From Candidatus Curtissbacteria bacterium (GTDB lineage: Bacteria; Patescibacteriota; Microgenomatia; Curtissbacterales; GWA2-41-24): 38,807 nucleotides of DNA. Position 1 is the stretch's first letter; each line of letters starts with the position of its first letter. Shown in pieces: positions 369-36,400 of this stretch. The notes under the pieces were generated by a model. The model saw nothing but the letters and a program-made list of their open reading frames with translations, ran no database searches and was not told where the DNA came from. Location of the stretch: NCBI GenBank assembly GCA_030688205.1, contig JAUYIQ010000012.1:1-38807 (forward strand), in the 5' to 3' direction. The position numbers were made by a program, and so were the translations under genes.

Positions 369-977
369 TTAGTATTCCGATTCCCGCTTATCGCTTCTCT
401 CTTCCAATACATACTTATAACTAAACCACCAGAAAAAAGCCAGCCAAAACATGCTCAAAAGTACTGCACCGTATTTATGGGTTAAATCGGTAGCAACTCC
501 ACCGAAATAATAAAGTATTGCCAGAATTAAAGCTATCCTGATTACGTTGAAGATAAAGGTTCCCAAAAAGCCGATAAGAAGGACTTCTATTTTGGAAAAC
601 CTCGTATATTTCTTAGAAAATCCTCCCCATAAGCTTATCCCTAAAATTACAAAAGACTGCCAGCCGATACAATTCCACGAAATATAAGTCTTCAAACTTT
701 GGCCGTTTTTAATAACCTCAACCGTCCCCTCAAGAATCGGCACTCCCGCAAGCTTCAAAAGTGTTCCTACAAGAACCTCCTCATACGGAACAAGGACATT
801 CTCAATCACCCTGAAAAAGAACGTTTGTTCTGCAATCTTTGCAAACAGGTTGTCCAAAGTCAGAAACAAGGGCAGGAATAAAAAGATGAAAAACAGCGGT
901 AATACAAGGTGGATTACCAGCCATCGTGATACTTCGTAAATTCTAGGATTTATTGTTGAACTGTAAATTTGCTTCAT
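369..977 (-). CDS. Exosortase/archaeosortase-family membrane protein (paralog 1)
   Basis: 202-aa ORF that is hydrophobic throughout, with about 6 predicted TM helices. Motifs are VPYEE, ISWNCIGWQS (Cys), FNVIRIALIL (Arg), THKYGAVLL (His) and FWWFSYKYVLEE. The Cys...Arg...His order matches the conserved core described for exosortases/archaeosortases. It is a clear paralog of 22929-23471 and 29182-29763. Confidence 0.7.
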   Translation of the reverse strand: MKQIYSSTINPRIYEVSRWLVIHLVLPLFFIFLFLPLFLTLDNLFAKIAEQTFFFRVIENVLVPYEEVLVGTLLKLAGVPILEGTVEVIKNGQSLKTYISWNCIGWQSFVILGISLWGGFSKKYTRFSKIEVLLIGFLGTFIFNVIRIALILAILYYFGGVATDLTHKYGAVLLSMFWLAFFWWFSYKYVLEERSDKRESEY

Positions 978-1043
978 AGTTAACCTTCGATATGACTACA
1001 AATAGGGTACCATATTAGGCTAAATTTTTAATATAAACCGCCA

Positions 1044-1072
1044 TTGCAAATCGTCTATTAATCGTCTACAAT
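1044..1072 (+). promoter_or_regulatory. Candidate sigma70-type promoter of the Fic gene (TTGCAA-17 nt-TACAAT)
   Basis: TTGCAA at 1044-1049, an exact 17-nt spacer, then TACAAT at 1067-1072. The ATG at 1081 is only 8 nt downstream and has no Shine-Dalgarno sequence, so the mRNA would be leaderless or nearly so. Confidence 0.35.
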
Positions 1073-1080
1073 ACGACTAT

Positions 1081-2118
1081 ATGTTTTCTCCTAAATATAC
1101 AATTACCGATACGCTTCTTGCCAACATCAAGCGAATTAATACTCTTGTTAACGGGCTAAACAACAGGAGATTTGCAAATGTTATTTTGTTGCAGCTGGAA
1201 AGGACCGCCAGAGAGGTTTCTAGCTATGCCTCAACGAGTATTGAAGGCAATCCTCTTCCCCTAACAGAAGTAAAAAAGATCCTTAAATCTAAACCGACCC
1301 ATATAAGAGAAAGTGAAAAAGAAGTTCTTAATTATAACCAAGCCCTGCAAGGACTAAACAAAAAGCTGGAAGAAGGTAAAGTAAAACTGTCACTGGCATT
1401 AATATTAAAGATCCAAAAACAAGTCACATTGGGACTTCTTCCTTCTTATGAATCCGGAAATTTAAGGCAAAAGCCAGTCGTAGTGAATGATCCGCGAACC
1501 GGGCAAATTAAATTCCTTCCGCCGGATGTAAAAGATGTTGAAACATTGATAAAGGATTTAATTAAGTATGTTATCAAAAACAGAGAAAAAATTGACCCTT
1601 TAATTTTAGCCGGTATATTCCATAAACAAATGGTTTTAATCCACCCGTTTACTGACGGCAATGGCAGAACTACCCGTTTGGCTACAAAAGTCTTAATGGC
1701 ACAGATGGGATTAAATACTTTTAGCTTATTCAGCTTCGAGAATTATTATAACCAAAATGTTACAAGGTATTTCGAAAAAGTGGGAGAATTTGGAAATTAT
1801 TATGATTTAGTTTCCTATGGAATTGATTTTACCCCTTGGTTAGAATACTTCACGGAAGGAATCATAGATGAACTATTAAGAGTGCAAAAACTACTTCCCG
1901 AAGAAACTACATCGCCACAGACAGGACTTCAACTCTTTCATTTTAGGATATTGGATTTTATCAGGGAGAAAGGTTTTATCACCAACCGGGATTATTCCAA
2001 ATTAGCAGACCGCGCGAAAGCCACAAGAGCAATTGATTTTCAAAAGTTGATAAAATTAGGCCTGATCGAAAGAAAAGGTAAGGGTAGGGCAACTTATTAT
2101 GTCTTAAAGGAAAAATAG
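1081..2118 (+). CDS. Fic-family protein (AMPylase-type) with N-terminal inhibitory motif and C-terminal winged-helix domain
   Basis: Canonical Fic motif HPFTDGNGRTTR (HxFx[DE]GNGRxxR). An upstream STSIEGN fits the (S/T)xxxE(G/N) intramolecular inhibitory helix. The C-terminus RAIDFQKLIKLGLIERKGKGRATYYVLK looks wHTH-like. Confidence 0.9.
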   Translation: MFSPKYTITDTLLANIKRINTLVNGLNNRRFANVILLQLERTAREVSSYASTSIEGNPLPLTEVKKILKSKPTHIRESEKEVLNYNQALQGLNKKLEEGKVKLSLALILKIQKQVTLGLLPSYESGNLRQKPVVVNDPRTGQIKFLPPDVKDVETLIKDLIKYVIKNREKIDPLILAGIFHKQMVLIHPFTDGNGRTTRLATKVLMAQMGLNTFSLFSFENYYNQNVTRYFEKVGEFGNYYDLVSYGIDFTPWLEYFTEGIIDELLRVQKLLPEETTSPQTGLQLFHFRILDFIREKGFITNRDYSKLADRAKATRAIDFQKLIKLGLIERKGKGRATYYVLKEK

Positions 2119-2139
2119 ATCCCCATTTGAAAATTGTCC

Positions 2140-4740: not shown

Positions 4741-5191
4741 AGCTAACTCCTTTCTGCTCGGCCTCAAAAATGATCTTCGTGGTAAAAAGCGCCGCGCCGA
4801 ACAAAAACGCTTTTTCCTGTTGCCATAGCTGTCGTTTTGAGTGGGTGTTAAGTGCAAGACGACTGAGGATATTGCGGACTCCCTTTTCGGAAATCGCAAA
4901 ACATTCGTTAGTTATCAATTTGGCGAGCTTCTTTGTGGAAAAATGCGGATTTTGCAAAACTTTCTCGAGAACTGTCTGTTCCCTGAATGGGGTCGCTCTT
5001 CGCGGGTGGTTTAAAATTTGCGCTTTTTTGGGTTTTACTGAGGACTTCTTGCCTGTGTAACGCTTATTTAGGCGGTAAAAAATTGTTCTGGAGATTCCGT
5101 AGAGTTTGCACCCCAAAGTTACAGAGAGTTCACCTCTTCGAACTCTTTCTATTAATTCACAGCGTTTCTTCTGGGTTAATTTCGGCGCCAC
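4721..5191 (-). CDS. Small HTH DNA-binding protein resembling the N-terminal domain of IS481/IS630-type transposases, with no catalytic domain
   Basis: 156 aa. Motifs are LGCKLYGISRTIFYRLNKRY (HTH), NHPRR, and a second HTH-like segment STKKLAKLITNECFAISEKGVRNILSRL. Its stop overlaps the cargo-1 start by 20 nt. Confidence 0.55.
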   Translation of the reverse strand: MAPKLTQKKRCELIERVRRGELSVTLGCKLYGISRTIFYRLNKRYTGKKSSVKPKKAQILNHPRRATPFREQTVLEKVLQNPHFSTKKLAKLITNECFAISEKGVRNILSRLALNTHSKRQLWQQEKAFLFGAALFTTKIIFEAEQKGVSYEDFTL

Positions 5192-22928: not shown

Positions 22929-23471
22929 TCATTCCTTCCTCTTTTCCTCTAGAACAAACGTATATGCAAACCACCAGAAGGCCAAAAACCAAAGTATCGC
23001 AACGAGAGTCGCCAGGTAATTATGGAAAACGTAGGCCCCGCTCTTACCAAACGAAAGAGCAAACAAAACCACAATAATGATCCTAAAAATGTTAATTAAA
23101 AATGTGCCCAACAAACCGATCAAAACCGTTTCGATCCGGGAAATTGGCGTAAATTTTCCCGAAAGTCCGGTCGCAAAAGTCAAAATAAGAAGCACTACCG
23201 ACTGCCAGCCCAAACAGTTCCAGGAGATATAAATTGATGCGTTTTGAGATATTAACCCTGTCTTTGTTATAGTCATGTCAATACCAATCAAATTCAAGAA
23301 TCCCCAAACAAGTTTCGTCTCATAAGGCACCACGTAATTTTGGATGATTTTATAAAGGTATAAATGCTCAATCACCTTCGTCATCGCCTCAGACAACGTC
23401 ATCACAGCGGGAAAAATCAACAAAATAACCGCAGCGAAGATGAAGATATTGCTGAAAACAGATGTTTTCAT
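22929..23471 (-). CDS. Exosortase/archaeosortase-family membrane protein (paralog 2)
   Basis: Motifs VPYET, ISWNCLGWQS, INIFRIIIVV, FHNYLATLV and FWWFAYTFVLEEK. The likely start MKTSVF at 23471 overlaps the cargo-2 stop as ATGA (23468-23471). The track start at 23528 would add 19 non-hydrophobic residues. Confidence 0.7.
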   Translation of the reverse strand: MKTSVFSNIFIFAAVILLIFPAVMTLSEAMTKVIEHLYLYKIIQNYVVPYETKLVWGFLNLIGIDMTITKTGLISQNASIYISWNCLGWQSVVLLILTFATGLSGKFTPISRIETVLIGLLGTFLINIFRIIIVVLFALSFGKSGAYVFHNYLATLVAILWFLAFWWFAYTFVLEEKRKE

Positions 23472-25513
23472 ACTGGTAACACCATAACAATCTTTTCTTT
23501 GTTCTTCAGTCTGCGTTGCTTTATCCATTCAACCAGCTTCGGCACAAATATCAAGGCCGGCGCGGCAAAAAGTAGAGCCTCCGGCACGGGCATACTGGAA
23601 ATCTGAATAATCAGCCAGGCGGAAGCAAGATTAACGGTATTAGGACTTGTTACGTTTTTCTGCGAATCCATTCTTTTTGAAGAAGCCGGCATATTTGCTG
23701 TAATATCACCGCTTCTTTGCCGAACATAAGTCGTACTGGCTGTCGAAACTTCCGAGCCTGTAATTGCAGATGAATCAGTATCATTTTTAAGTCGTGAATA
23801 CCCGGTACCGGCAGAAGTTTTTATCGTAGATTCAAAAAAGTAAGCCTTAGTCCCCCCGAAATTAGCGGGGACAAAAGTATTATCATAAACATCATCACCA
23901 TATATCCCGGCACATGCACACGAAACATTACTATTAGCATATTGTTGCACTGTCTCCAAATCCGTCACCCCGTTTGTCCCATCAGACTGGTTCAAAACTA
24001 TTTTTGCGTTGGAAATACTTCCGGAACACCCTCCTCCGTTACCATCGGTACATTTAACCCTTACAATATAGTTGTCATCATTGGTCGTATCCCAGTCGGC
24101 GTCCCCGTCAACGTTAGTCCCCGTCTTCAGGGTCCAGGTCGTATCGCCAGTATGGGAAACTTCTGCAACACTCGTGCTGTTGGTATTATTGTAAAGTTCC
24201 GCATGGACAGTATCCCCCGCACTGGCAATTTTTAAGGTTGCCTGGAATTCTACATCACCCGGAGAAGTAACGGGCGAAGGGGTAAAAACGCTGTCGTTAT
24301 ACTGGTAGATTTTGTAATGGGTCAAAGCAGAGTAAGTAGTATTTGTAAAAGCCGTTTGGTTATTCCCCACCTCAACTTGCGTCTGGGTATCTGTTATCCA
24401 ACCGCCTGACGACTGCACAACTTTCAGCCTGGCTGCCTTTATCTGGGCTGTACCCGAAGCATTATCGGTTTTTATCTGAACTGTATAATCCTTATCATCC
24501 AAAAACTGGGCATCTGCGGTAACGTCAACTGTCTGAAGGGCATAACCACAGTTATTGATAAGGTAAGTAACAGAAGCTACTTCTACGTCGGGACTAGAAG
24601 TTATTTCCATAAGGGTAGCCGTAGTTGTAACGGCTATCTGATCTTTTCCGGAAGTATACCCCGTATTACAAATCAAAGCCTCGAAAGTAACGGTTGAGAT
24701 ATTGGAAAACTTATCGTCATCCCAATGGATAATCCCCAATGAATAATCTGTGGGCGCCAGAGTCGTACTCGCTGTCGTGTACTCCTGATCAATCATATTT
24801 ATCTGCTGCTCGAGACTTAAAGTCATGTCTATTTGAATAACCAGCCAGGCAACATTGGTTTTTGCGGTGTTTCCAGTTAGAGCTTTATGTTCAACATCAA
24901 GGGTTTTCGAGGTTGTCGGCATGGAAAGAGCTGAACTTCTCCTCCGGGCATCCGTGGACGCTCCGGGAATGTTGATTTCCCCATTAGTGATATCAGCAGG
25001 AGTCGTCTCGTCCTTCACTTTTATCCAAGCATCAAGAAAATCTGAATCACCGTATATCTCAAAATAATAAGAAACTGTGCGTGGGGTAAAGTTTGCAGGG
25101 TCAAAAAGGTTATTGTAATTTATGCGGGCATAACTTGTATCTGTAGTTTGTATATAAGTGTTGTTATACACCTGCGTCGTTTCCAGTTTTGAAACGCCCG
25201 AGGCCGAACTCTGCTCCAAAATAATTTTGGCATTGGCAATTTTGGCGGTATTGGCAGAAGCTTTAATGCAAACAAAATAATTTCTCCCCGCAGTCGGCGT
25301 AAACGAATTACTCCTTACACGCGTGTATGTGGAATTTGTGGTTGATACTTCGCTATCTATTAGCGTACTGCACGAGGAGAATGCAAGAACAGCGTAAGCA
25401 GTTGACCCTGCATTACTGTTTGATATTGTAGCTTCAAAATAAACTGTAGGTGCCGGAGACCAAAAGTGAAGACGAAGCCGCACTGCAGGTTGTGGAAGTA
25501 GCAGTGGTATCAA
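23468..25513 (-). CDS. Repeat-module surface protein with a PVPE C-terminal sorting signal (cargo 2); probably the frame-shifted continuation of the upstream GT2 ORF
   Basis: 681 aa, rich in T/S/N/D. It contains repeated units starting EQQINMID, TQTQVEVGNN and ET.Q.Y.N and ending AWL[VI]IQI. The C-terminus is MPVPE-ALLFAAPALIFVPKLV-EWIKQRRLKNKEK. It has a TTG start, no signal peptide, and overlaps the GT2 ORF by 80 nt. Confidence 0.65.
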   Translation of the reverse strand: MIPLLLPQPAVRLRLHFWSPAPTVYFEATISNSNAGSTAYAVLAFSSCSTLIDSEVSTTNSTYTRVRSNSFTPTAGRNYFVCIKASANTAKIANAKIILEQSSASGVSKLETTQVYNNTYIQTTDTSYARINYNNLFDPANFTPRTVSYYFEIYGDSDFLDAWIKVKDETTPADITNGEINIPGASTDARRRSSALSMPTTSKTLDVEHKALTGNTAKTNVAWLVIQIDMTLSLEQQINMIDQEYTTASTTLAPTDYSLGIIHWDDDKFSNISTVTFEALICNTGYTSGKDQIAVTTTATLMEITSSPDVEVASVTYLINNCGYALQTVDVTADAQFLDDKDYTVQIKTDNASGTAQIKAARLKVVQSSGGWITDTQTQVEVGNNQTAFTNTTYSALTHYKIYQYNDSVFTPSPVTSPGDVEFQATLKIASAGDTVHAELYNNTNSTSVAEVSHTGDTTWTLKTGTNVDGDADWDTTNDDNYIVRVKCTDGNGGGCSGSISNAKIVLNQSDGTNGVTDLETVQQYANSNVSCACAGIYGDDVYDNTFVPANFGGTKAYFFESTIKTSAGTGYSRLKNDTDSSAITGSEVSTASTTYVRQRSGDITANMPASSKRMDSQKNVTSPNTVNLASAWLIIQISSMPVPEALLFAAPALIFVPKLVEWIKQRRLKNKEKIVMVLPV
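23471..23590 (-). other. PVPE + TM helix + basic cluster sorting signal of cargo 2
   Basis: CCC GTG CCG GAG (PVPE) was verified at 23579-23590 on the minus strand, followed by a hydrophobic helix and QRRLKNKEK. Confidence 0.6.
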
Positions 25514-27737
25514 AGCAATAATCTTTTTGATCGTCCAAAACTATGTAACTGGTATCAGTTTTGGTATTTTGGTCTCCCACCTCAATTTGTGTCTGGGTAT
25601 TAGTAAAGCTTGTTGCAGATTGCAAAATTATCACTCTCGCTGCTCTCACAGCCACATTTGCACCGACAGATGAAACAAAAACCTCACCTGTTGGGTAACT
25701 GCCGATGGCCGAAGTCCTAAATCTTGTAGCTGTTGTTGTACTGGCTGTGATGGTAATAGTAGTACTTGTATCGGCACTTCCCGAACCGCAGGCCGGCGAC
25801 CCACCGTTACCGCCTTTGGAAAAAGTTACGGTTTGGTCAGACCCGGCGGAATTTGTAGCCACTACTTCAAAATAATAGGTGCCGCCGGAAAATTTGGAGG
25901 TATCTACACATACAATTCCTACCGGTGCTGTCCCCGCCGCAGCTTCCTCATCAACTATATTAATCTGCTGCTCGACTTTCCGACTCCCTGCAGCAGCACT
26001 GGCATTCGGCACAAAAAATGCCAGATAATTTAGCAAAATCACAACTGTCAAAAGCCCCGCCAGAACCGATTTTGAGACAAACCGGAAATGCCTTCTGCGA
26101 CCCTCTATCTCCCTCCCCACAAGCGGCCTGTATGCAGAGGCAAAAGCGAAGGTACGCGGATTCAACTGATTAAAAGCTGATTTAGCCGAGTCGGCATAAT
26201 CGGCTGAAATCGGTTTACCCTGAGCATCGAAGGGCGGAATCGGCGAGCCACCGACCAGACGGCCGAAAAACTTTCCGAATCCTGTCCTTTCAGCAACGTC
26301 TGTAACTATTCCGGACTTTGGCGTTCTGAACCAAGGACCTTCATGAGGCTCCAGGAAACCTTTGATAGCAGCATAAGCCTGAAACGGCACGACTATATAT
26401 GAGATTAATATAAAAGATACTATTCCGGCATAGTCACGTTCGTCTGACTCCTCAAGAAAAAGCCCGACTATATTCATCAGAGGAAGCGCAAAAAGGTTGG
26501 TAAATACCAGTGACCAGCCAAAAGCTGCAGTCCAGAACGGCAGGCGGGCTCCCATCAAAGCTTCGGAAATGAACCACGCAAATGTACCGACAACAAAGAA
26601 AGCCGCCTGCAGATAGTAAAAAGCAAAATAAATAAACTCCATCTTCTCACTCAGTGTCATATTGGGAGATTTCATAATCCGGGGAAACATAACCTTGACG
26701 TTGTAGGAAGAACCTTCTGCCCAGCGCATACGCTGGCGGATTAAACGCTTAACGGTTGCCACTGCTTCGGCAGGCGCCTGAATATAAGGAGTAAACAGAA
26801 CCTTATACCCTGCCTCATAGAGACGAAGTGTAAGTTCAAAATCTTCGGTGATGGAAGTTCCCCAGCCGAATTTCCGAAGTACATCTGCACGAATCGCATA
26901 TACGCTTCCGGCAATTTGCTTCAAACCTCCATAAATCTGCTCGCTCGAGCGCTCAATAACGTAAGAACCCGCATATTCCGTACGCACTCCCCTTGTAACC
27001 CACGTCTGGGATTTATTCAGTACGTGCCACTGGTAACCCTGAACGGCAACGATGTTGCTTACTGCAGACCGCTTACCGCTTACCGCTAACTGCTCATTAC
27101 TGTCTGCTGTTTGCTGTAAGCCATCAGCATTTAGAACTTGAAACGTCTTCACAAACTGCTCGACGGTATCAGGATAAGGCACGAAGTCTGCATCCATAAC
27201 CACGATGTACCACGCTCTTCCGGAACTTCTCTCAAGCGCCTTGTGCAAAGCTGCCCCTTTGTAACCTGAACGCGAAAAGCGGTGAATAAGCTTAACTGTC
27301 GGAGCGTTAGTCTTTGTAAAGATGAAGTATTCAAGTTCAGGTTCCAGATTTCGGGTTTCAGATTCCTGTTTACCAATTTCTGGCACCTGATACCCGGTAC
27401 CCGGAACCTGAATCGTCCACCCACCATCCAAAAGCGTCTTTTTTGCTATCTCAGTCGTCTCATCATTGGAATCGTCGGCAATAATTACCTCGTAATTAGC
27501 AAACTGCTTACCGCTTACTGCATTCAGCTGTAAGCTGTCTACAAACCAGTTCTGCGACGTACATGCACGAATCAGCCTTTCAACAACCCGCTTCTCGTTA
27601 TAAAGAGCAACGTGGATGGAAACAAATGGTTTGGGTTCAATAATCTGAACCTTCTCCATGTTCATCAGAAGATGGTTAGGCTGAGACTTATCTCTGTTTG
27701 GCGAAATAACATTCTCAATAAACTTTTTTATACTCAT
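25434..27737 (-). CDS. Processive family-2 glycosyltransferase (cellulose/chitin/PNAG-synthase-like) with TM region and extracytoplasmic C-terminal repeat units
   Basis: Motifs VSIHVALYNEKRVVERL, IIADDSNDETT, GYKGAALHKAL, VVMDADFVP and QRMRWAEGS (QxxRW), followed by several TM helices. After the last helix, VEQQINIVDEE... and TQTQIEVGDQ... are homologous to cargo-2 units. Its ATG overlaps the upstream stop as ATGA (27734-27737). Confidence 0.85.
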   Translation of the reverse strand: MSIKKFIENVISPNRDKSQPNHLLMNMEKVQIIEPKPFVSIHVALYNEKRVVERLIRACTSQNWFVDSLQLNAVSGKQFANYEVIIADDSNDETTEIAKKTLLDGGWTIQVPGTGYQVPEIGKQESETRNLEPELEYFIFTKTNAPTVKLIHRFSRSGYKGAALHKALERSSGRAWYIVVMDADFVPYPDTVEQFVKTFQVLNADGLQQTADSNEQLAVSGKRSAVSNIVAVQGYQWHVLNKSQTWVTRGVRTEYAGSYVIERSSEQIYGGLKQIAGSVYAIRADVLRKFGWGTSITEDFELTLRLYEAGYKVLFTPYIQAPAEAVATVKRLIRQRMRWAEGSSYNVKVMFPRIMKSPNMTLSEKMEFIYFAFYYLQAAFFVVGTFAWFISEALMGARLPFWTAAFGWSLVFTNLFALPLMNIVGLFLEESDERDYAGIVSFILISYIVVPFQAYAAIKGFLEPHEGPWFRTPKSGIVTDVAERTGFGKFFGRLVGGSPIPPFDAQGKPISADYADSAKSAFNQLNPRTFAFASAYRPLVGREIEGRRRHFRFVSKSVLAGLLTVVILLNYLAFFVPNASAAAGSRKVEQQINIVDEEAAAGTAPVGIVCVDTSKFSGGTYYFEVVATNSAGSDQTVTFSKGGNGGSPACGSGSADTSTTITITASTTTATRFRTSAIGSYPTGEVFVSSVGANVAVRAARVIILQSATSFTNTQTQIEVGDQNTKTDTSYIVLDDQKDYCFDTTATSTTCSAASSSLLVSGTYSLF

Positions 27738-28672
27738 GCCCTACCTCCACTTTGTGCCACTCGCAAAACCATAAAAATACTTATGTAGTACTTCATGCTG
27801 AAGATAAAGAAAAATAGTCCAAAGAAAAGAGCAATAGAAGCAAAAGCTAAGCCAACCACAGATGTACCAGCTGAAGCCGAAGAAACCATTCTGAAAAAGA
27901 AGAAGGTTACAAGAAAAGGAAGAGACAAAATGGACAAAGCAGACAAACCGCGGCGAGGGTCAGTTACTATTAGCTTCGGGACAGAAGCAAAAGGCGCAAA
28001 CAAATCCCGCCACCTGTATACAGGCATTTCGGGCTGATACAGCGGAGCGACTTGGACAAAAGGCTCAACAAAAAAGGCTCCAACATGCAGCAACCTGCGG
28101 GCAAGCGTATTGAGGTTCTCACGCGACAGTAGATTTTGAATCCCGTGATGCCCGACACTGCCCCTTAACCTCTCGTGGAGACTCTTAACAGACAGGTTGG
28201 GATTGGCAAAAACCTCATCAATCACCAATCTTTCTTGATCTTTTGAAAGGGCGTTATAATGCAAACTTCCCTTTAGACGCTTACTGGCAAGGCCACCTTT
28301 ACCTTCCGCTTTATATCTTTTAAGCCACTTGTAACAAGTTTTTCTGGAAATACCGGCTTCCCTGCAAAGTTCTGCTATGCTTCCGTGACCCGCAAGTACC
28401 TTATTAACAAGAAGTGACTTGTCTCGAATGTTTAGGGCTTTAATCGACCTTCGGTCGCATTTGAATCTTTTATCTCTAAGCTTACTAGCAAGCAAATGCG
28501 GTGCAGCATCCTTATATATAGCAAGCCATTTATAAAAAGTTTTTCGGGAGATTCCAGCCTCACGGCACAATCTGGCTATTTTTCCGCCGGACCGGGCTTT
28601 TTTTATTAATGTTAATTTAGCCTCGGAAGAAAAATATGCCACAATTAAAGTGTTACCTTTATCGGGTATCAT
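27734..28672 (-). CDS. Membrane-tethered protein with tandem IS481-like HTH domains (candidate regulator), no transposase core
   Basis: Motifs ARLCREAGISRKTFYKWLAIYKD and AELCREAGISRKTCYKWLKRYKAEGKGGLASKR, plus a third HTH-like segment LSVKSLHERLRGSVGHHGIQNLLSR. The C-terminal ~90 aa are hydrophobic (LSILSLPFLVTFFFF, VVGLAFASIALFFGLFFFIF). ATG at 28672; the track uses TTG at 28678. Confidence 0.55.
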   Translation of the reverse strand: MIPDKGNTLIVAYFSSEAKLTLIKKARSGGKIARLCREAGISRKTFYKWLAIYKDAAPHLLASKLRDKRFKCDRRSIKALNIRDKSLLVNKVLAGHGSIAELCREAGISRKTCYKWLKRYKAEGKGGLASKRLKGSLHYNALSKDQERLVIDEVFANPNLSVKSLHERLRGSVGHHGIQNLLSRENLNTLARRLLHVGAFFVEPFVQVAPLYQPEMPVYRWRDLFAPFASVPKLIVTDPRRGLSALSILSLPFLVTFFFFRMVSSASAGTSVVGLAFASIALFFGLFFFIFSMKYYISIFMVLRVAQSGGRA

Positions 28673-29181
28673 AGTCAAATTTTTCTGGGGCTATTAAAAC
28701 AATAGGCCTATATAGTAAAAATGAGGCTAAAAGAGCATTAATTTTTATGCAACTATAAGTAACAAAACATACTACTATAAGATTAATATAATTAATTATA
28801 GGATGATAATTATTAATGGCTTGTCCTAATGGGCTAAACGTAAGACCTGTTTATCTCGCAGCCTATTAGCTGAATTAGCAAAATTGGTCATATCCCAAGG
28901 AGTAATGTACTCAAAAAACGCTTTAAAACCTCTTTTACAGCCTCTTGGTGGCTAATGAGAAAAAAATTGAAGATTCCTCTAGATCTATCTAGATTTTTTC
29001 ACAACTTATTGACTAAATATTTCACAGATATAATCTCATAACAAGACTCTGTAATAATCACTGATTAGCACAAATAAGATGAACATGTGCTTACTTAATC
29101 AATATATATCTTTTTATAATTTACTATAATTTGTAGAATCAGACACCAATTTCCGATACGGTCCTCTCTAACACTGTAGGC

Positions 29182-29763
29182 CTACAGCGATTTTTCCTCT
29201 AACACAAAACCATAAGCAAACCACCAGAAGAAAAACAGCCAGCCAATCACAGCTAAAAGTGAACCATAGTCGTGAACAATCGTCGCCGGCAGTTGACCAA
29301 AGTTGTAAGCCACAAAAATAACCAGCACAATTCTTAAAATATTGACCCAAAAAGTCCCCAGAGCGCCGATTAAAAAGGCCTTGAATTTGGATAAATTCGT
29401 ATATTTATTTCCCTGCAAACCAATGAATGCCGTGATGGCAAAGAAAAGAATTGATTGCCAGCCAATGCAGTTCCAGATAATCTCGGCAATAAAAGGTTGA
29501 TTATTCCCCAAAACAACATATTCACGGGTCACCGCCACCTCAACTCCCAAAAGCGCCAAAATCACTGCCGTCAGCCTCACTTCAAAAGGTACAACATACT
29601 CGCGAATCAAGTAGTAGCCTTTAAGGTTAATTACAATCCTCGTCAAAATGTCATTGAAAGTCGCCATTAGGGGAAAAAACATCAAAATTAGAACCAGAAT
29701 TAGAAAAAGGGTCACAAAGGTATTGCGGGAAACAGAAATTGTTCTAAATTTAGGCGCAATCAT
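29182..29763 (-). CDS. Exosortase/archaeosortase-family membrane protein (paralog 3)
   Basis: Motifs VPFEV, IIWNCIGWQS, VNILRIVLVI, VHDYGSLLA and FWWFAYGFVLEEK. Confidence 0.7.
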   Translation of the reverse strand: MIAPKFRTISVSRNTFVTLFLILVLILMFFPLMATFNDILTRIVINLKGYYLIREYVVPFEVRLTAVILALLGVEVAVTREYVVLGNNQPFIAEIIWNCIGWQSILFFAITAFIGLQGNKYTNLSKFKAFLIGALGTFWVNILRIVLVIFVAYNFGQLPATIVHDYGSLLAVIGWLFFFWWFAYGFVLEEKSL

Positions 29764-29765
29764 GA

Positions 29766-30431
29766 TTAAAAATTATCAGAGCTTACCATATCTTTTACCG
29801 GCCCCATAAAAGTATAACCGGTTTCATTTTTTCTGACGTCAACAGAAACGAGAGTAGTGGCTTTCAAAACCCCATCAATATATATCTTTTTACTACCTTT
29901 TCCATCATTTAAATCCCAGGAAACGCTAATACCGTGAGCAGACTCTAAGAAATTTGCGTCCAGTTCTACATCTGCTTCCCTGTGGTCATCTATACCGCCT
30001 GAGTCAAAAATATTAAAATGCACATCTTTTCCCTCTTTAATTAAAATTTGCAAAGCATTATTGTGATTCTCCAGATTAAAATTGCCTAAAAATAAAATAA
30101 GATCGGTGTTTTTTGCCCACGGTTGTGCTGCTAATTTAAAGCTGACAGTCCCCTTTTGAATGTCTATTTGCCCCTCGTTGCGATATAAATAGTTCGGCAA
30201 AGCCACAATATTTTTGAATTGACGAAGATCCAATCCTTTGTGAGGATCATTGCCGCGTAGCCCTTCTGAAGAAGCACCCTGCGGTTGTTGCACCGGCTCA
30301 ACCACCGGCTCAACCGGCTCAACGGAAAATGGTGCCGGCTTGCGATTTCTTAAATAAAAAAACCACACCGCAGCTGCAATTATCAGCAACAGCAAGGCAA
30401 TGACAACAACAAGCTTCCTTAAATTTTTCAT
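29766..30431 (-). CDS. Signal-anchored protein with Pro-rich linker and LamG/ConA-like jelly-roll domain (tentative)
   Basis: TM helix LVVVIALLLLIIAAAVWFFY and linker EPVEPVVEPVQQPQ. GTVSFKL..., LILFLGN and ISVSWDLNDGKGSKKIYIDGVLKA resemble LamG-type motifs. Its ATG overlaps the cargo-3 stop as ATGA (30428-30431). Confidence 0.45.
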   Translation of the reverse strand: MKNLRKLVVVIALLLLIIAAAVWFFYLRNRKPAPFSVEPVEPVVEPVQQPQGASSEGLRGNDPHKGLDLRQFKNIVALPNYLYRNEGQIDIQKGTVSFKLAAQPWAKNTDLILFLGNFNLENHNNALQILIKEGKDVHFNIFDSGGIDDHREADVELDANFLESAHGISVSWDLNDGKGSKKIYIDGVLKATTLVSVDVRKNETGYTFMGPVKDMVSSDNF

Positions 30432-33400
30432 AGGCGTTGTACCAGGTTCTTTTTCTTTTTCAACCTCGACATCAACCCATATGCCAGTGGTGTTGCCAAA
30501 AGTAGGTAAAGTGTCCTCTCCGGCACTGGTGCAAACTCAAAATTTGTTCCCTGACGTAAGACTACCCCAATCTGGCTGGTTCCGTAACCGGTCATAGTGG
30601 ACGAGATGTGGCCCAAATCGCCTGCCGTAAAAGCGTAAGAAGTCGAAGCACCCCAGCCCAAGAGACAAGCCGCACTGTTGCAATCGGCGAAGGTAATATC
30701 CCCATCGGTGCCGTCGAAATAGGCCACTTTGCAATCGCTGGCGGAGAGGCAATAGACACCAGGTACCGAGCTATCAATACCACCGCCAACGGCAGTATCA
30801 ATGTCTGTGATAGTTGGCGCTGAACAGGTGGCATCGTTACAATCGGCGAAGGAGACATCTTCTTCGTTCCCGTCAAAATAGACCACTTTGCAATCAATCG
30901 CTGATGGGCAATAGATCGAAGCTTGAGCCCAGAAATTACCGACAACATCGGTGTCGATGTCGTTAATTGTCGGCGCTGAACAGGTGGCATCGTTACAATC
31001 GGCGAAGGTGATATCCTGGTCGGTTGTATCAAAATAAGCGACTTTGCAATCGGTAGCTTGCGGGCAGTAGATCGAAGCATTAGCTGCGCTGCCAACATCG
31101 GTGTCGATGTCGTTAATTGTCGGCGCTGAACAAGTGGCATCGTTACAATCGGCGAAGGAGACATCTTCTTCGTTCCCGTCAAAATAGACCACTTTGCAAT
31201 CAATCGCTGATGGGCAATAGATCGAAGTCGTAGCAAAAGTACCAACATCGGTATCGACATCGGTCAAGGTTGGCGCTGAACAAGTGGCATCGTTGCAATC
31301 GGCGAAGGTGACATCTTGGTCAACATCGTCATGATAGGCTACTTTACAGTCATCGGCTGCAGGGCAGTAGATTGATGGGCGGTAATTAGAATTAACGGTG
31401 GTATCAATATCAGTAATGGTTGGCGCTGAACAAGTGGCATCGTTGCAATCGGCGAAAGTCAAATCCGTATCAGCGAGATCAAAATAGATTATTTTACAGT
31501 CATCGCCTGCGGGGCAGTAGATTGATGGTAGAGCATCAGCAAGCCCAACAGCAGTGTCGATGTCTGTGATAGTTGGCGCGCTACATGCGGCATCGTTGCA
31601 ATCGGCGAAGGTGACATCTTGGTCAGTTCTGTCAAAATAGGCCACTTTGCAATCGCTGGCGGAGAGGCAGTAGATTGAAGCATAAGCTGCACTACCCACA
31701 TCAGTGTCAATATCTGATGGAGTTGAAGTAATCATTGTCTCATCAGTTGTCTTAAAGTAGGCTTGGTCAGAACTATCCTTAATTGTATGGGCATATAAAT
31801 CGCCGTTTTCTAAGTCGTAGGTAATTGAAACCGACTCAAGCTCAGTCTCGCCGCTTGGCCAAGGAGCAGTTAGCGAACTCCAAGTGCTTCCGTTGAATTT
31901 ATAGAAGTTAGTAGCAGTCGTTCCGGAAACTGTCAACACCCATAAATTAGTATTGTCAGTGGTGACGGAATAAACATTATCGGTTACCGAAGCAATCGTC
32001 GCATTACTGGTTGTCCAACTGCTGCCGTCAAAAACTGAAGCCGAAAGATCGCCGTCCTGATAAACCATATGCAGATTGTTGCCAATGGTAACCAGAACAG
32101 GCCGGTCGCCGGCTGTCAGGCCGCTCGCGCTCGTAAAAGTAAGGCTATCCGCAAGCTCGACCCAGGGGTTGTTGTCCGTGGTCGACGTGTCGTTCTCCGG
32201 CAGGTCAGTGCCGGAGGCGTCGCCAATGCGAAGGCTAGAGTCGTGGGCAGCGGCAAACGGGTCGCCGCCCGTGCCCACCTCGATGACCAGGCGGTCGCCC
32301 GCGACGGTCGTGTAGTTGCCCGCCGCGCTCGTCGCCGTGAACTGACGGTTCGTCAGGGCGGCCGTTGACAGAGTTACGTTGTCCCGTGTAACAGCCAGGA
32401 CGGTCTTCCGGACGATGGAACCATCGGTGTTAACGATCCTGACGCCCAGGGCAGTACGCATGCCGTCCGCCACGAACGCCTTAAAGCCGCGAATCTGAAA
32501 CTTCAGCGCCTGCCCGCCGGTGATGGTCTGGCCGGGGGTGAGGGCGGCGCCCACGTACTGGCGGAAGAGGATGTCCTTGTCGGCGTTATCAGAGTCGTCA
32601 AACGCCACCGTGCTCATCGCCGAGGCGATCTTGGTCGTCACGGCGGCAAGGCGGGCAGCGATAGACACATTTTCCCAAGCTGCGTCGTAGGCGGGACTGA
32701 TGGCAGCAGCACCAGTCGAAGGTAAATAAAAACGGCTAGCACTGCCACTTTCGCCAGTAATATCAGTAAACGTACAGCCGGAAAAGGTCAGCTTAAAAAC
32801 AGCGACCTCAGTATCGGTTGAGGTATCAGAATAAGCCACATAAACAGTTCCGTTATCGGCAACGGCAACTGAAACCGTAAAACTGGTCGTGTCTATTGAC
32901 CCCTGATCGGCTGAAGTACATTTTGTTCCTAAAGTATCATTGGCGGTATTGATGGTATTAACCTCAATCGCATCGGAAGAGTCGTCAATCCAGGCAACGT
33001 AAATGGTATTACCCTCTAACCAAACGGAGGGATTGTAATTGTCGGTGTCTGTCGTATCAACTGTTTGAGATGATAGCCAAGTTGTTCCCCCATCGGTTGA
33101 CTTTTGATAGTAAATTTGACAACCGTTGGTTGAGGAACAGGTATCTCCGCTAACGCCATTGGTATAAAAAGCATAAAAAGCTCCGCCGACAGGTTTTAGC
33201 GGCACTCCGATTGTTCCCCAGTTGGCAGTGGCAGCCAAACCCCACGACATTGTTACCGTACCAGCTCCCTCCTCTGTACTACCAGCACCAGTAGCCTCAA
33301 CACCCTGCTGTACGTTATAACGCTGTGTTTGACCTGCTCCCACTGAAGAAACCGCTACAGACTCCACACCAACCGCATCTATAACCATTTCACCTTTCGC

Positions 33401-36400
33401 GCTTGTAACGTCAACTGTTACAGCATTGCTGGTTGACGTATTAGTGGCAACTGTTCCAAAGGGTGTCAGTTGATTAACTCCAGTAAAGCTCATAGCGCCT
33501 GCAGTTACTCCCTTGGAAGCAGATAGTGAAACAACTACACTATTTGTTCCGGTTGGCGGATTAACCAGTCTCCAAAGTTCAACTCGTCTGCTATTACCGA
33601 AGCTTACCCCCTGAACAAGTGATAATGAGGTGCTACTATAGGTAACCCCTGTTATGGTTGCACCCCCCGAAAGTTCAGCGGCTACACCGACGGTCAGTAT
33701 TCTATTGGCTCCGTTAGTAGTGACCGTATGGTTAAAACTTAAGCTGTTTGTAATTGCATTAGAACTGGAGGCATTATCAAAAGCAATCCCGGAATAAACT
33801 AGCTTCCTTTGCAAACCGCCGAATTGGGCTTCAACCTCTTCGGTTGAGCCACCACCGGCAACAGTTGATTTTGATCCGCCGGAGCAAGTTGCCGTCTCAC
33901 AATCAATAAATCTTAAATCACCATTAGTTACTTGATAATATGAAATCTTGCAATCGGTAACCGAAAGACAAAACATTGACGAATATTGACCGGTGTTATT
34001 GGCCGAATCAAGAGTCTGGAAGTTGTTTCCTGATGTACAATCGGTATTGCCGCAAACTAAAAATTTTAAGTCGCCAACCGTTCCTGAAGTACTGGCATCC
34101 TGGTTATCGTAATAATAGCTAATTCTGGGGATATCGGCAGCGTCAAGCCTAAGCGATGCAAAAAGCCTAATGTCAGCCCCGCTGCTAACCCGTTCAATCC
34201 TGGTCAAGCCGCTATTGGTCGAACAGGAAACATTGGTGCATCTGACAAACTTTAAAAAGTCACCGGAACTAAAAAAGTCATAATAAGCAATTCTTGAAAA
34301 GCCGTCGCTACCAATTGCTAAACTAATTCCATCCAAGCCAGCTGATCCTGTCCCATCAATGGTTTGGATGGTATCGGTTGTTGAACAAGCAGCGTTGGTA
34401 CAGTGAACAAATTTTAAAGCCTGGGGACTACCATTACTAAAATAAGCAATCTGGGCATTACCGGAAGAGTCTAATTTTATACCAATATTAAAGCTGTCTG
34501 GAAAGGCACTCACAGTGATTGTCGTATCAGGCGCATTATTGTTTCTGGCAGAACAAGTGGCATTGGTGCATTGGATGAATCTTAAGTCGTCAGTGGTCGT
34601 GTCATAATAGGAAATCCTCGCAAAACCATCAGAGCCCAAATCTAAGGCACTGCCATTACCGACATCACCATTGACCGTGCAGCCGACACAGCCGTCAATT
34701 GTAGTCGTAGTTCCGGTTGAGCAGGCCGAATTATCACAATCCCGAAAAATCAAATCGCCTGCGGTGGTATCGTAATATGAAATCTTGCAGTCAGTTGAGG
34801 AAACACAGGCCAAAGAAGGGCTGTGACCGGTATTATTAGCAGTATCAATCGAAGTAGCCGTACCGGTCGTACATTTAGCATTATCACAGTCATAAAATTC
34901 CAAATCGCCTCCGGACTGGTCGTAATAAGCAATCTTGCAATCGTCAGTCGCTACGCAATAAATAGAAGTATAGCGGCCAACATCATTGGTGGTATCTACA
35001 GCTTGAATATGAGTATGATTGCTAAATTCAAAAGCCTTGCCGCGTCTTACCACCACTCCGGATTGGGCCGTACCGGCTGCAGTTGCCGGAGAGGAAATAT
35101 GGCCTAAGTCATTGCCCACGAAGTTAAAATTGGCGCCGCTGCCTGTCCAGTCAATGGTTGTTGCATCAGAAGAATCAGCGTAAACCTGTTCCGCGCTGTC
35201 TTTGATGACATAAGCGATCAAATCGGAATTGGTTGAATCATAAGTTAAGGAAGCACTGGTTAGATTGGTTTCGCCGGAGAATGGCTGATCCAAAGTATTT
35301 GAACAGGCTGCATCGGTGCAATCAATAAAGGTCACGTCCTTATCCCAATCGTCGAAGAAAAAGACTTTGCAATCCTGGGCTTGAGTCGGCGTGCCATCAC
35401 TTGGACAAAAAATTGAAGGCCGCATATTAGCATGCGTTGCATTCTTAAGATCGTTGATGGTTGGAGCGGAACAGGCAGCGTCATTACAATCCACGAAATT
35501 AATATCCCGATCTGTGGTATCGGCATAAGAAACTTTACAGTCATCGGCCGCCGGGCAATGGATATCGACAAAGCCTTCATATTGGGCGGTTCCAACATCA
35601 GTGTCAATGTCGAACGGGCCGCCGCCGTCAAACGAACTGCAGGCTGCATTGGCGCAATCGGCAAAAGTAACATCACCATCTGTTGAGTCAAAGTAAACGA
35701 CTTTGCAATCGGCAGCAGTCGGGCAGTCAAGAGCCGGCTTGCCATAACTGCCAACGTCAGTATCAATGTCGGAAATCGCATCTCTGGTTGCACAATTAGC
35801 CGTAGCGCAATCGGCAAAAGTAATGTCTCCGGTTCCACCAACATCAGTCCCGTTATCAAAATAGACTATTTTGCAATCAAATGAGGCGCCAGCCAAACAG
35901 TCAACGGCTGAAACTGAAACAAAACCGCTTCCAACATCAGCGTCAATGTCTTGCTGGCCGCCGTTAGTCGAACAATCAACCGCATCACAATCGACGAAAG
36001 TAACATCATCATCAGTGTCGTCAAAGTAAACTACCTTGCAATCTCCCGCTCCCGCTCCGCAACTGATTGAAACCGAGGCTGAAGTACCAACGTCGGTATC
36101 AATGTCAAAAGCAGTACTGTCAAGGCTCGAACAGGCTACGTTGGCACAATCGGCAAAAGTGATGTCACCATCGGTTGAGTCAAAGTAAGCAATTTTGCAA
36201 TCAGCCGCAGTCGGGCAATCCAAATCAACCCGGGCGGTTGATCCGACGTCTGTATCAACATCATTAATCGTTGGTGCATCGCAATCTGCTCCGTTGCAAT
36301 CAACAAAAGTAATGTCACCGTCCGTTTTGTCAAAATATGCCAGCTTACAATCGTTTTGGGCCGGGCAATAGATTGAAACCGCAGCATCAGAAGTTGTATT

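Follow-up and report, generated by a model that had tools for sequence, protein, structure and literature searches.

Exosortases of the PEP-CTERM systems (XrtA, EpsH) are described as genetically tied to exopolysaccharide loci (Haft et al., 2006, PMC1569441; bioRxiv 10.1101/2023.06.07.544157). In Haloferax volcanii, archaeosortase A is described as removing the C-terminal helix of PGF-CTERM proteins and putting a lipid in its place, and the concept of dedicated one-to-one exosortase/target pairs in consecutive genes has been described as well (bioRxiv 10.1101/2023.06.07.544157). Here we analysed a window of 38,807 nt (a Candidatus Curtissbacteria contig) and class a locus within it as a variant of such dedicated exosortase systems. 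The region is very probably one copy of a two-gene surface-assembly unit, consisting of a long fusion gene and a sortase gene, with the fusion gene lying in three pieces (Table 1). Its combination of HTH, synthase, ectodomain and sorting signal appears to be undescribed in the searchable literature.

Similar to PEP-CTERM/exosortase systems, the locus couples a protease from that superfamily, multi-pass in the membrane and with Cys, Arg and His residues, to a target whose end is a short Pro-Glu motif directly followed by a TM helix and a basic cluster, and is genetically associated with polysaccharide synthesis. It differs from them in the size of the sortase (~180 aa vs about 270-500 aa), in the motif, (V/I/T)PE followed by a helix that contains a conserved APF(I/L)P, in having mostly one gene per adjoining sortase instead of one to many, and in its hosts, which are monoderm-like CPR bacteria instead of diderm Proteobacteria; further, the polysaccharide link goes beyond a shared locus to a translational fusion. 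For a cell that lacks an outer membrane, the archaeosortase A/PGF-CTERM system offers the closest mechanistic parallel, sharing the enzyme superfamily and a large Ser/Thr-rich surface-protein target, although the signal motif and host domain differ and the target is here fused to an enzyme. In the XrtG family and the "XrtP-associated glycosyltransferase" (NF053846) systems, too, a GT2-type glycosyltransferase is genetically linked to a small exosortase, but the GT2 in the window scores 47 bits against the NF053846 cutoff of 520, and the sortase 18 bits against the XrtG cutoff of 103. To our knowledge, the glycosyltransferase of XrtG/XrtP-type systems is a separate accessory protein that does not itself carry a sorting signal.

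Table 1. Features of the split fusion gene and its sortase gene (positions in the window)
Feature	Position	Strand	Basis
Spacer, sortase 1 to HTH-TM ORF	28679..29181	-	AT-rich, 503 nt
Fragment 1: two transposase-type HTH modules (cytoplasmic), then two TM helices	27734..28678	-	Pfam, hydrophobicity, colinearity
Break 1: GGAGG, TAG, GGG run, ATGA	27734..27748	-	Sequence
Fragment 2, N-terminal part: GT2 core, TM/interface helices, signal-peptide-like TM	25989..27737	-	Pfam, motifs, AlphaFold, Foldseek
GT2 synthase core	about 26703-27629	-	Pfam GT2 families
GT2 C-terminal TM/interface helices	about 26352-26654	-	
Signal-peptide-like TM	about 25989-26105	-	RRRHFRFVSKSVLAGLLTVVILLNYLAFFVPNASA/AAG
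Ectodomain part 1, GT2 frame: beta-sandwich module starting ...VEQQINIVDEE	25466..25988	-	Model, homology
Break 2: TTTT run, one T extra	25462..25465	-	Repair, alignment, tblastn
Ectodomain part 2 ("cargo 2"), Ser/Thr-rich	23591..25461	-	ORF, alignment
Sorting signal: PVPE, hydrophobic helix (ALLFAAPALIFVPKLVEWI), basic KQRRLKNKEK, short tail	23471..23590	-	Sequence, homologues
Sortase 2: ~180-aa multi-pass exosortase/archaeosortase-family protein	22929..23471	-	TIGR04178, conserved residues

Related loci are present in GTDB species representatives (394 loci). Titles among the best 80 of the 394 are largely Curtiss-, Woese-, Davies-, Chisholm- or Gottesmanbacteria or "Patescibacteria group", while many other titles in this set are unreliable; the unit is typical of Microgenomates-type CPR bacteria, and a few Chloroflexota have it also. 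More than 100 relatives, mostly Microgenomates-group CPR, carry every part on one protein, a single chain of 1000-2300 aa in which two transposase-type HTH modules are followed by two TM helices, a BcsA/HAS/chitin-synthase-like GT2 and more TM helices, and then by a signal-peptide-like TM, a variable ectodomain, and (V/I/T)PE with a TM helix and a Lys/Arg tail. Because 100 of the 120 best homologues have the HTH module, fused to the GT2, the ancestral unit comprises a single long gene and a sortase gene, of which the window holds a split form (a linker fission and a 1-nt frameshift). The tripartite tail is found in 78 of these 120, and homologues without the HTH module or the xPE-TM-basic tail are mostly contig-truncated fragments. 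Genomes often have several paralogues, many of them two or three. The window itself contains three cassettes, and cassette C is without a GT2 altogether.

Gene order, which the initial annotation had proposed to compare among relatives, is kept in them: of 46 complete loci, 32 have a sortase homologue that starts less than 1 kb downstream on the same strand, 25 of these within +-75 nt. The pairing of fusion gene and sortase is frequent but not obligatory, since a sortase is missing next to the other 14 complete loci, and the neighbours of some sortase homologues are unrelated genes. Viewed from the sortase side, a tailed ORF lies upstream in 41 of 62 sortase loci, and all 13 complete tailed ORFs upstream of sortases carry a GT2.

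That annotation had read the region as an operon of four genes linked by overlaps. On such a model, translational coupling would yield HTH-TM, GT2, cargo and sortase as separate proteins, with the cargo exported independently and processed by the sortase. ORF calling does give four overlapping ORFs on the minus strand, and the overlaps it reported are all present, namely ATGA at 27737-27734 and 23471-23468 and an 80-nt out-of-frame overlap between the GT2 ORF (25434..27737, 767 aa) and the cargo ORF (23468..25513, 681 aa); likewise, no minus-strand terminator-like or internal promoter-like site lies between the ORFs. A separate cargo gene is nevertheless highly improbable. The cargo ORF could start only at a TTG, not at ATG or GTG, and lacks an SD sequence, a signal peptide and any N-terminal hydrophobic segment, and the ectodomain begins already on the GT2 ORF (residues ~585-757). 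Moreover, the single-chain relatives, in which the parts are fused, are colinear across the three ORFs in frames -2, -1 and -2, so that homology crosses the GT2/cargo junction in two frames and identifies the cargo ORF as the frame-shifted continuation of the GT2 ORF. The proposed covalent fusion of synthase and cargo thus holds, as one polypeptide in the relatives.

The GT2 ORF contains ADDSNDETT, DADF and QRMRW, and shares with BcsA, PgaC, NodC, hyaluronan synthase and chitin synthase the D, DxD, TED and QxxRW motifs and a GT-A domain between TM helices. D88/D89, D182-A-D184, T297-E-D299 and Q335-R-M-R-W339 are invariant or nearly so in 87 homologues. In the AlphaFold model the core reaches a pLDDT of 90+, and Foldseek matches it to BcsA, HAS, Chs and CesA at E-values of 1e-13 to 1e-10. 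Its best structural matches are among processive membrane synthases (the top 35 are BcsA, hyaluronan, chitin and plant cellulose synthases), and BcsA is also the best PDB sequence match, which bears out the processive type assigned earlier. In contrast to BcsA/PgaC-type synthases, neither a PilZ domain nor a partner of BcsB/PgaD type was observed. The full protein also departs from known processive synthases in its double HTH at the N-terminus and its sorted ectodomain at the C-terminus, and it scores far below the equivalog cutoffs. Hydrophobic segments lie at residues ~409-458 and ~551-583. Between the GT2 helices and the signal-peptide-like TM sits an invariant GPWFRTPK(S/T)G segment, and the basic n-region, h-region and AxA-like c-region of that TM were seen in 101 homologues. 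Domain content, colinearity with single-chain relatives, synteny and the synthase-type fold are observed here, and each biochemical step of the possible mechanism is inferred. The cytoplasmic GT2 domain, of the processive, self-translocating type exemplified by BcsA, PgaC, chitin synthase and hyaluronan synthase, would polymerise a sugar from a nucleotide-sugar and extrude the polymer.

Fragment 1 matches HTH_28/HTH_29/HTH_Tnp_1/HTH_23 in two stretches (residues 16-56 and 91-134). No transposase catalytic domain was found in it, and IS481/IS3/IS630 models match only partly, at the N-terminus. Its hydrophobic segments (residues ~243-307) form a TM pair bearing the family-conserved motif G..FF.(Y/F)S.KYY, and the fragment is colinear with residues 5-296 of relative P0004 and 146-359 of relative P0005. 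The N-terminal TM helices of the synthase therefore do sit on the HTH ORF, as first noted, but this arrangement reflects the fission of a normally single protein and not an exceptional relocation. A fused homologue also matches processive membrane synthases by Foldseek, with a target TM-score unchanged from that of the window GT2, so that the N-terminal TM pair may or may not pack like TM1-2 of HAS. ToxR and CadC are membrane-tethered one-component regulators with a cytoplasmic DNA-binding domain, a membrane anchor and an extracytoplasmic part. The same layout recurs here with a cytoplasmic HTH predicted to bind DNA, but this HTH is transposase-derived (HTH_28/29/32), duplicated and attached to an enzyme; the HTH head may provide DNA-binding or regulatory input to the machine. 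The spacer upstream is presumed to act as the unit's promoter/regulatory region; promoter-like matches near it on the minus strand are limited to a weak one (28697-28668, 9/12), and no convincing operator repeat was found.

Break 1 is located in the linker after TM2, where GGAGG (27748-27744), a GT2-frame TAG (27743-27741), GGG (27741-27739) and ATGA (27737-27734) follow one another, with the HTH-TM stop TGA overlapping the GT2 ATG and GGAGG 6 nt before that ATG. The stop/start overlap and the good Shine-Dalgarno sequence argue for a genuine fission, as does the same kind of split in relative L002 (stop, 7 nt, ATG), which encodes a 433-aa HTH-TM protein, a 1079-aa GT2-ectodomain protein and then a sortase. 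Break 1 is thus plausibly a real fission that would give a two-subunit synthase.

Break 2 falls inside a conserved ectodomain motif (...C-S-A-A-S-S-S-L / W-S-P-A-P-T-V-Y-F-E-A-T), and tblastn places the frame change between 25509 and 25462. Ectodomain part 1, with modelled strands at residues 587-707 (pLDDT ~60-89), is homologous to the ectodomains of P0005, P0016, P0017 and P0024. Removal of one T gives an uninterrupted 1422-aa GT2+ectodomain ORF whose junction is gap-free in the motif against P0005 (YYCFD..CSANSPTSWNPSPSVYFEAT), P0017 and P0018. With one G added to the GGG run at break 1, which joins the HTH-TM and GT2 ORFs, the repaired ORF extends to 1736 aa without a stop and matches P0005 in one HSP (residues 16-1283 vs 68-1285, 42% identity, 1309 columns). 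Ectodomain part 2 holds a second copy of a ~400-aa module, repaired residues 1280-1701 rematching P0005 900-1293. Export of the ectodomain would be co-translational, and signal peptidase may free it from the synthase at the AxA-like site.

Each break falls at a short homopolymer (GGG and TTTT), so one or both may stem from faulty assembly, and the locus would then be an intact family member. That both are sequencing or assembly errors, and the true product one ~1736-aa HTH-synthase-ectodomain-PVPE protein like most relatives, is a possibility of some weight, though we consider it doubtful. Besides the two single-nucleotide repairs and the intact sorting signal, it is favored by isolated frame breaks on other family contigs, e.g., inside the GT2 core of L052; yet no other gene on the 38.8-kb contig is broken, the adjacent ORF of more than 8.2 kb included, and break 1 is a textbook coupled junction, its stop closing the other frame, with a counterpart in L002. 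Since ~660 codons remain open after the shift, the disruption at break 2 is either recent or an artefact, and break 2 itself reflects a sequencing error, an inactivating mutation of very recent date or a site prone to slippage.

Decay of the fusion gene as a paralogue, with only the neighbouring cassette or cassettes functional, seems unlikely. The multiple cassettes here and paralogues elsewhere, and the loss of GT2 from cassette C, would fit a pseudogene, but none of the three fragments has an in-frame stop, and the catalytic residues and those invariant in the family are all retained, the TM2 motif and the sorting signal among them, so decay would have to be very recent. Least expected, on a par with the separate cargo gene, is a programmed +1 frameshift at CUU-U (tca CTT TTG g), by which a short synthase would be made by default and frameshifting would yield the fusion of synthase, ectodomain and sorting signal. 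The prfB site has CUU_U as its slippery element, and if the P-site tRNA-Leu slipped +1 from CUU to UUU, the product would read ...SSSL-WSPAPTVYFEAT, exactly the conserved sequence. However, the A site holds UUG, not a stop or an obviously slow codon, no SD-like stimulator lies 3 nt upstream, and the relatives examined read straight through, none being frameshifted at that position. A real T insertion would leave the expressed synthase without the sorting signal and most of the ectodomain, and sortase 2 without a substrate from the fusion gene.

In the two-gene unit that we favor, the fusion protein ends in a tail with the family consensus P-[TS]-[ILV]-T-[VI]-P-E-N-V-[IL]-L-L-[LI]-x-x-A-P-F-I-P-x-x-V-L-W-x-K-K-R-R, which no sorting-signal model of NCBIfam matches. 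The small ORF (199 aa) is an exosortase/archaeosortase, as had been supposed, scoring 32.7 bits against the TIGR04178 cutoff of 23; it reaches the cutoff of no named subfamily. From homologue alignment, sortase 2, a dedicated cysteine protease by family, likely starts at the ATG at 23471 that overlaps the cargo stop. Its invariant residues are the Cys of WNC(L/I)GWQS, the Arg of N..R and the His of H(D/N)Y. The sortase would cut at VPE and exchange the C-terminal helix for another anchor, as ArtA does on PGF-CTERM proteins. The best partial HMM similarity of the sortases in the window is to archaeosortase C.

Searching the proteins of the metagenome collection with the GT2 ORF gave more than 1367 matches, and most of the best 120 are 1000-1340 aa long and carry HTH Pfam domains and GT2 on the same protein. 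The window HTH module was found by phmmer in 100 of the 120, and a tripartite C-terminal tail (an xPE motif, a TM helix and a Lys/Arg cluster) in 78, the remainder being mostly contig-truncated fragments. Among twelve proteins inspected there is one architecture, complete in the homologues P0005, P0017, P0024, and P0033 and partial in the other eight. Its N-terminal half runs through two HTH modules, a TM pair with FFLYSLKYY, GT2, TM helices, and GPWFRTPK(S/T)G, and its C-terminal half through a basic stretch with a TM helix and an AxA-like segment, a variable ectodomain, and a terminal (V/I/T)PE motif, TM helix (..APF(I/L)P..), and K/R cluster.

Seven single-chain proteins are each colinear with all three window ORFs in tblastn, where the matching frame switches from -2 to -1 near 27740 and returns to -2 between 25509 and 25462. 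Judged from these alignments, the separate HTH-TM, GT2, and 'cargo 2' ORFs of the window correspond to one gene in relatives. The initial annotation had described a four-gene operon; the single-chain relatives point instead to one long gene in three pieces followed by its sortase. All the sequence features it listed are present, namely the minus-strand ATGA overlaps (ggcATGAgta at 27737-27734 between HTH-TM and GT2, gtATGAaa at 23471-23468 between cargo 2 and sortase 2), the 80-nt overlap of the GT2 and cargo ORFs in different frames, and the ADDSNDETT, DADF, and QRMRW motifs. Its boldest part, a covalent synthase-cargo fusion, is right and is the norm in the family. We found no terminator-like or internal promoter-like sites on the minus strand between the ORFs, such as would have separated the genes. 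A 503-nt AT-rich spacer lies 5' of the unit, and the interval 28640-29200 contains weak, imperfect AT-rich operator-like repeats and nothing stronger. As a whole, the earlier interpretation is partly supported.

Features of the three cassettes and the gene lying within one of them (positions in the window)
Feature	Position	Strand	Remark
HTH-TM ORF	27734..28678	-	314 aa
GT2 ORF	25434..27737	-	767 aa
Cargo 2 ORF	23468..25513	-	681 aa counted from TTG
Sortase 2 ORF	22929..23528	-	199 aa
Giant ORF (cargo 1)	30428..38623	-	as listed; open up to window end
N-terminally anchored protein	29766..30431	-	221 aa
Sortase 1 (paralogue)	29182..29763	-	TIGR04178
HTH-only ORF	4721..5191	-	156 aa
Third cargo ORF	2140..4899	-	919 aa; likely start MKILLF near 4740
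Fic/DOC-family gene	1081..2118	+	Pfam E 4e-16
Third sortase homologue	369..977	-	hmmsearch E 1e-47

The downstream break in this gene (break 2) is an extra T in a TTTT run. The GT2 frame there reads ...DYCFDTTATSTTCSAASSSLLVSGTYSLF* and the cargo frame ...HFWSPAPTVYFEATISNSNAG, and the same region reads YYCFD..CSANSPTSWNPSPSVYFEATL in P0005 and YYCYATETDTGTTCSTDDESTVWSPTPTATFSATV in P0017. Deletion of one T from the run (25465-25462) gives ...CSAASSSLWSPAPTVYFEAT... and an unbroken 1422-aa ORF, with the peptide ...SSSLWSPAPTVYFEATISNSNAGSTAYAVLAF... across the repaired junction. An additional G in the GGG run at 27741-27739, combined with the T deletion, produces a 1736-aa ORF. Its match to P0005 is one continuous HSP (16-1283 vs 68-1285) at 42% identity over 1309 columns, and P0017, P0024, and P0018 align in the same manner. 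The ectodomain already begins on the GT2 ORF (predicted beta strands at 587-707, after a TM helix at 552-575), and the cargo ORF lacks an ATG or GTG to start from, a Shine-Dalgarno sequence, and a hydrophobic segment at its N-terminus; 'cargo 2' is therefore the GT2 gene continued in a shifted frame.

From the shift onward about 660 codons are open, with the sorting signal undamaged, so the disruption is an artefact, very recent, or bypassed. A programmed +1 frameshift of the prfB type could make use of the slippery CUU_U that is present at break 2; however, the A-site codon is UUG instead of an in-frame stop, no SD-like stimulator accompanies it, and the relatives do without any shift, so the site does not have the makeup of a prfB-type signal. 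We also considered a programmed frameshift at TTT_TGA, where the GT2 ORF stops, and rejected it: it would remove the conserved WSPAPTVY, whose coding sequence lies upstream in the other frame. In a search for a second assembly of the strain, the exact pattern around the T-run, with three to five bases allowed in the run, had no match in the metagenome collection, and the protein database contains no relative with more than 72% identity.

The upstream break (break 1) falls in the variable linker after TM2. A GGAGG stands 6 nt 5' of the ATG, the stop codon overlaps the start codon, and a TAG shuts the GT2 frame two codons upstream. The homologous locus L002 (P0006) is split in the same linker, with a 433-aa HTH-TM ORF, a stop, 7 nt, the ATG of a 1079-aa GT2-ectodomain protein, and a sortase overlapping by 4 nt; the window and L002 are alone in this among about 80 loci. 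We favour a genuine fission, giving a two-subunit enzyme, slightly over an error (a missing G). Two other contigs are also broken, L052 (4801-8253) by a split inside the GT2 core just past QRMRW, and L053, where the protein ends shortly past GT2 and the sortase lies 2.1 kb downstream. Frame breaks are therefore not unusual in the family, be they errors or pseudogenes.

The HTH-TM ORF carries two transposase-type HTH modules (HTH_28, HTH_29, HTH_Tnp_1, HTH_23, and HTH_32 in Pfam), followed C-terminally by two hydrophobic helices at approximately 243-307. Matches to the IS481/IS3/IS630 transposase models of NCBIfam are limited to profile positions of about 4-112 of 284, at 80 bits vs a cutoff of 224, and no catalytic (DDE) domain was found in the ORF with these models, which leaves it short of a full-length transposase. 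A transposase or IS identity was ruled out, given the missing catalytic domain and the joining of the HTH to GT2 in most of the relatives. The modules are better described as domesticated heads, predicted to bind DNA.

The GT2 ORF matches GT2 families in Pfam, and it contains the D, DxD, (T)ED, and QxxRW motifs of processive synthases, with DDS 88-90 (D88/D89), D182-A-D184, T297-E-D299, and Q335-R-M-R-W339 invariant in an alignment of 87 sequences. None of the named synthases is reached at equivalog level (bits/cutoff: PgaC 47/422, CelA/BcsA 37/699, NodC 21/550, MdoH 23/829), and a partial similarity to the 'XrtP-associated glycosyltransferase' is likewise far under its equivalog cutoff. The best PDB match by sequence is BcsA (E about 1e-3, residues 277-479). 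We modelled the GT2 protein with AlphaFold2 from an 87-row alignment (mean pLDDT 75.6, GT core 90+); helices at 362-462 are predicted after the GT domain, with two more on the HTH-TM ORF. Foldseek ranks 1-35 for this model (E 1e-13 to 5e-10) are BcsA, the hyaluronan synthases of Chlorella virus (Cv-HAS) and Xenopus (Xl-HAS), plant CesA, and chitin synthases of yeast, Candida, and Phytophthora (Chs1/Chs2, PsChs1), and non-processive GT2 enzymes such as TarP and WrtF come in at rank 41 and below. A clustering with non-processive enzymes, named at the outset as evidence against the earlier reading, is accordingly not what was found. The fused homologue P0004 gave the same result; its TM2 is modelled with pLDDT 85-90, and with the N-terminal TM pair included the target TM-score is no higher than that for the window GT2. 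Motifs and predicted fold together indicate a processive-synthase-type enzyme that is the equivalog of no named synthase.

In 101 homologues, the TM helix before the ectodomain resembles a signal peptide, with a Lys/Arg-rich n-region, an h-region of 15-20 residues, and a c-region ending in ..V-x-A|T/S.. (VPEVLA|TNP and VREVQA|SPW are examples; the window has FFVPNASA|AAG). The ectodomain may therefore be freed from the synthase by signal peptidase I, which would make 'cargo' an apt term. No family hit was obtained for the cargo ORF. In the repaired ORF, the ectodomain (window 23591-25988) consists of two copies of a module of about 400 aa, as residues ~860-1283 and 1280-1701 both match P0005 900-1293, and this duplication makes the window copy longer than most relatives. 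A blastp self-comparison of the repaired ectodomain gave no internal repeats; the duplication is seen through double matches to P0005, P0017, and P0024.

The window protein ends in PVPE-ALLFAAPALIFVPKLVEWI-KQRRLKNKEK, a complete tripartite signal, and its tail WLIIQISSMPVPEALLFAAPALIFVPKLVEWIKQRR is close to that of P0017, WLIIQLQSIPVPEIAIFALPLLIFLPKIVKWFKARK. It shares this design, and its adjacency to a sortase, with the PEP-CTERM-like class, but matches no curated model: with 53-residue tails and E <= 5, no relevant NCBIfam match was found among PEP-CTERM, PGF-CTERM, PEF-CTERM, VPXXXP-CTERM, and other sorting-signal models. Several homologues (P0008, P0011, P0032, P0043, P0051, P0106, and others) have a longer cytoplasmic tail past the basic cluster that ends in ...(L/E)(D/E)ELPV, and two loci of this long-tail type (L018 and L034) have no sortase alongside. 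The window cargo ends in ...MVLPV (23471-23479).

Scores against TIGR04178 (cutoff 23) are 32.7 bits for sortase 2, 36.6 bits for its paralogue sortase 1, and 29-34 bits for the sortase neighbours of relatives, which places the sortases in the exosortase/archaeosortase superfamily (TIGR04178, PF09721). There are four to five hydrophobic segments, as in a multi-pass membrane protein, and C86, R130, and H150, in the contexts WNC(L/I)GWQS, N..R, and H(D/N)Y, are invariant in the sortase alignment. Cys, Arg, and His form the proposed catalytic triad of the exosortase/archaeosortase family (10.1101/2023.06.07.544157). Within this superfamily the window sortases fall outside every named subfamily (ArtC, ArtE, XrtG, XrtX, XrtY, XrtM, CrtC, and thaumarchaeosortase), with best scores of 18-30 bits vs cutoffs of 95-250, and they would represent a subfamily without a name.

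Gene order in relatives was assessed for 46 GT2 ORFs, each followed by 1.5 kb or more of sequence. A sortase homologue begins within 1 kb downstream on the same strand in 32 of them, 25 of these within +-75 nt, and the conservation of gene order expected from the initial annotation thus holds for the synthase-sortase pair. Viewed from the sortase side, for which JGI metagenomes gave 455 confirmed matches and the best 80 were inspected, a tailed ORF lies upstream in 41 of 62 loci, and all 13 complete tailed ORFs carry GT2. Some sortase copies are orphans, located beside housekeeping genes or in tandem.

The domain order, its conservation, and the sortase adjacency are directly supported. By analogy with the named families, the HTH head and GT domain would be cytoplasmic, the synthase would polymerise a glycan and extrude it, and the ectodomain would be exported and retained by its C-terminal helix; the sortase would cut at or next to VPE and swap the helix for another anchor. 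The acceptor could be a lipid, the wall, or glycan made by the synthase itself. In the case of archaeosortase A, PGF-CTERM proteins lose the helix and acquire a lipid, and dedicated one-to-one sortase/target pairs are a known concept (10.1101/2023.06.07.544157). The literature that could be searched, which is incomplete, yielded no account of a target that doubles as the polysaccharide synthase and bears a double HTH head, and no paper on exosortases, archaeosortases, or PEP-CTERM in CPR, Patescibacteria, or Microgenomates, or on HTH/GT2 fusions.

Exosortases are associated with EPS loci. To our knowledge, since 2006 this link has consisted of co-occurrence alone, and the bacterial attachment partner of the substrates is not established. 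A widespread family whose sorted protein is physically part of a polysaccharide synthase, with the sortase encoded alongside, would tie the two processes in one polypeptide and make the link testable. Going further, the unit might be a self-contained maker of surface glycoconjugates in which the neighbouring mini-exosortase joins the ectodomain to the nascent polysaccharide, a reading we put forward as speculative and rather improbable. The ectodomain, released by signal peptidase yet held via its VPE helix, would then have its new C-terminus transferred by transpeptidation to the growing polysaccharide or to its lipid-linked form; the translational fusion would ensure that protein and polymer reach one site in a 1:1 ratio, and the membrane-tethered double HTH would signal the state of the machine to the chromosome. 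If true, this would give a first direct handle on what exosortases attach their substrates to, and hypervariable ectodomains and multiple paralogues per genome would make a diversifying adhesin or coat system for episymbiotic CPR bacteria. The significance of the unit rests on the family-level architecture and not on the window copy, which is possibly damaged. The cell-surface biology of Microgenomates-type CPR bacteria is almost unexplored, and the family would represent a large, multi-copy, hypervariable surface system in them. For annotation of such genomes, ORFs called 'HTH transposase-like', 'glycosyltransferase family 2', and 'hypothetical' that stand in a row should be checked as pieces of one gene.

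A search of the genome collection (GTDB species representatives) gave 394 related loci. The best 80, looked at by title, are largely Curtiss-, Woese-, Davies-, Chisholm-, or Gottesmanbacteria or 'Patescibacteria group', with a few under the label Chloroflexota or Bathyarchaeia. Many (L004-L006, L011, L017, and others) are titled 'uncultured Gammaproteobacteria bacterium' and two 'Bathyarchaeia archaeon'; such MAG titles look like submission or binning artefacts, as the gene content is CPR-typical. One locus (L080, BNJJ01000008.1, 213858-227559) belongs to Dictyobacter formicarum, a cultured Ktedonobacterium that could serve as an experimental model. It encodes P0018, a 1233-aa GT2-ectodomain-TPE-tail protein, and, 60 nt downstream, a sortase homologue with 39% identity to sortase 2 (E 2e-46). 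Immediately 5' of P0018 is a DDE transposase gene, and P0018 itself begins inside the first TM without an HTH, which suggests that an IS insertion took away the HTH head.

Ectodomain types are shuffled among genes. The window GT2 gene has the 'EQQINIxD / YFEAT' type, while in P0006 and P0015 GT2 is joined to Cys-rich 'DCK(I/V)SYYD' repeats like those of the giant ORF, whose tail type (..VVLRxxxNFEFAxVPE) recurs in L004, L023, and L065. The giant ORF belongs to a second minus-strand cassette (29182-38807) and terminates in APVPE, a TM helix, and KKKK. Its opening residues align with HTH-GT2 protein ectodomains (P0004 957-1027, P0012 923-1039), and 'cargo 1' is therefore probably the tail of a synthase-fused gene as well, truncated at the contig end. 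The N-terminally anchored protein and then sortase 1 follow 3' of it; in L004, L023, and L065 a homologue of the former likewise separates cargo from sortase.

A third minus-strand cassette (369-5191) is without GT2, and no GT2 remnant was detected in it. Its HTH-only ORF, homologous to the HTH module of the family, overlaps the third cargo ORF, which has a basic stretch and TM, an ectodomain, and the tail GDPVPEYSILLAPFAFGIPKIIRSIRQ. A Fic/DOC-family gene on the opposite strand stands between this cargo and its sortase and breaks the usual cargo-sortase adjacency.
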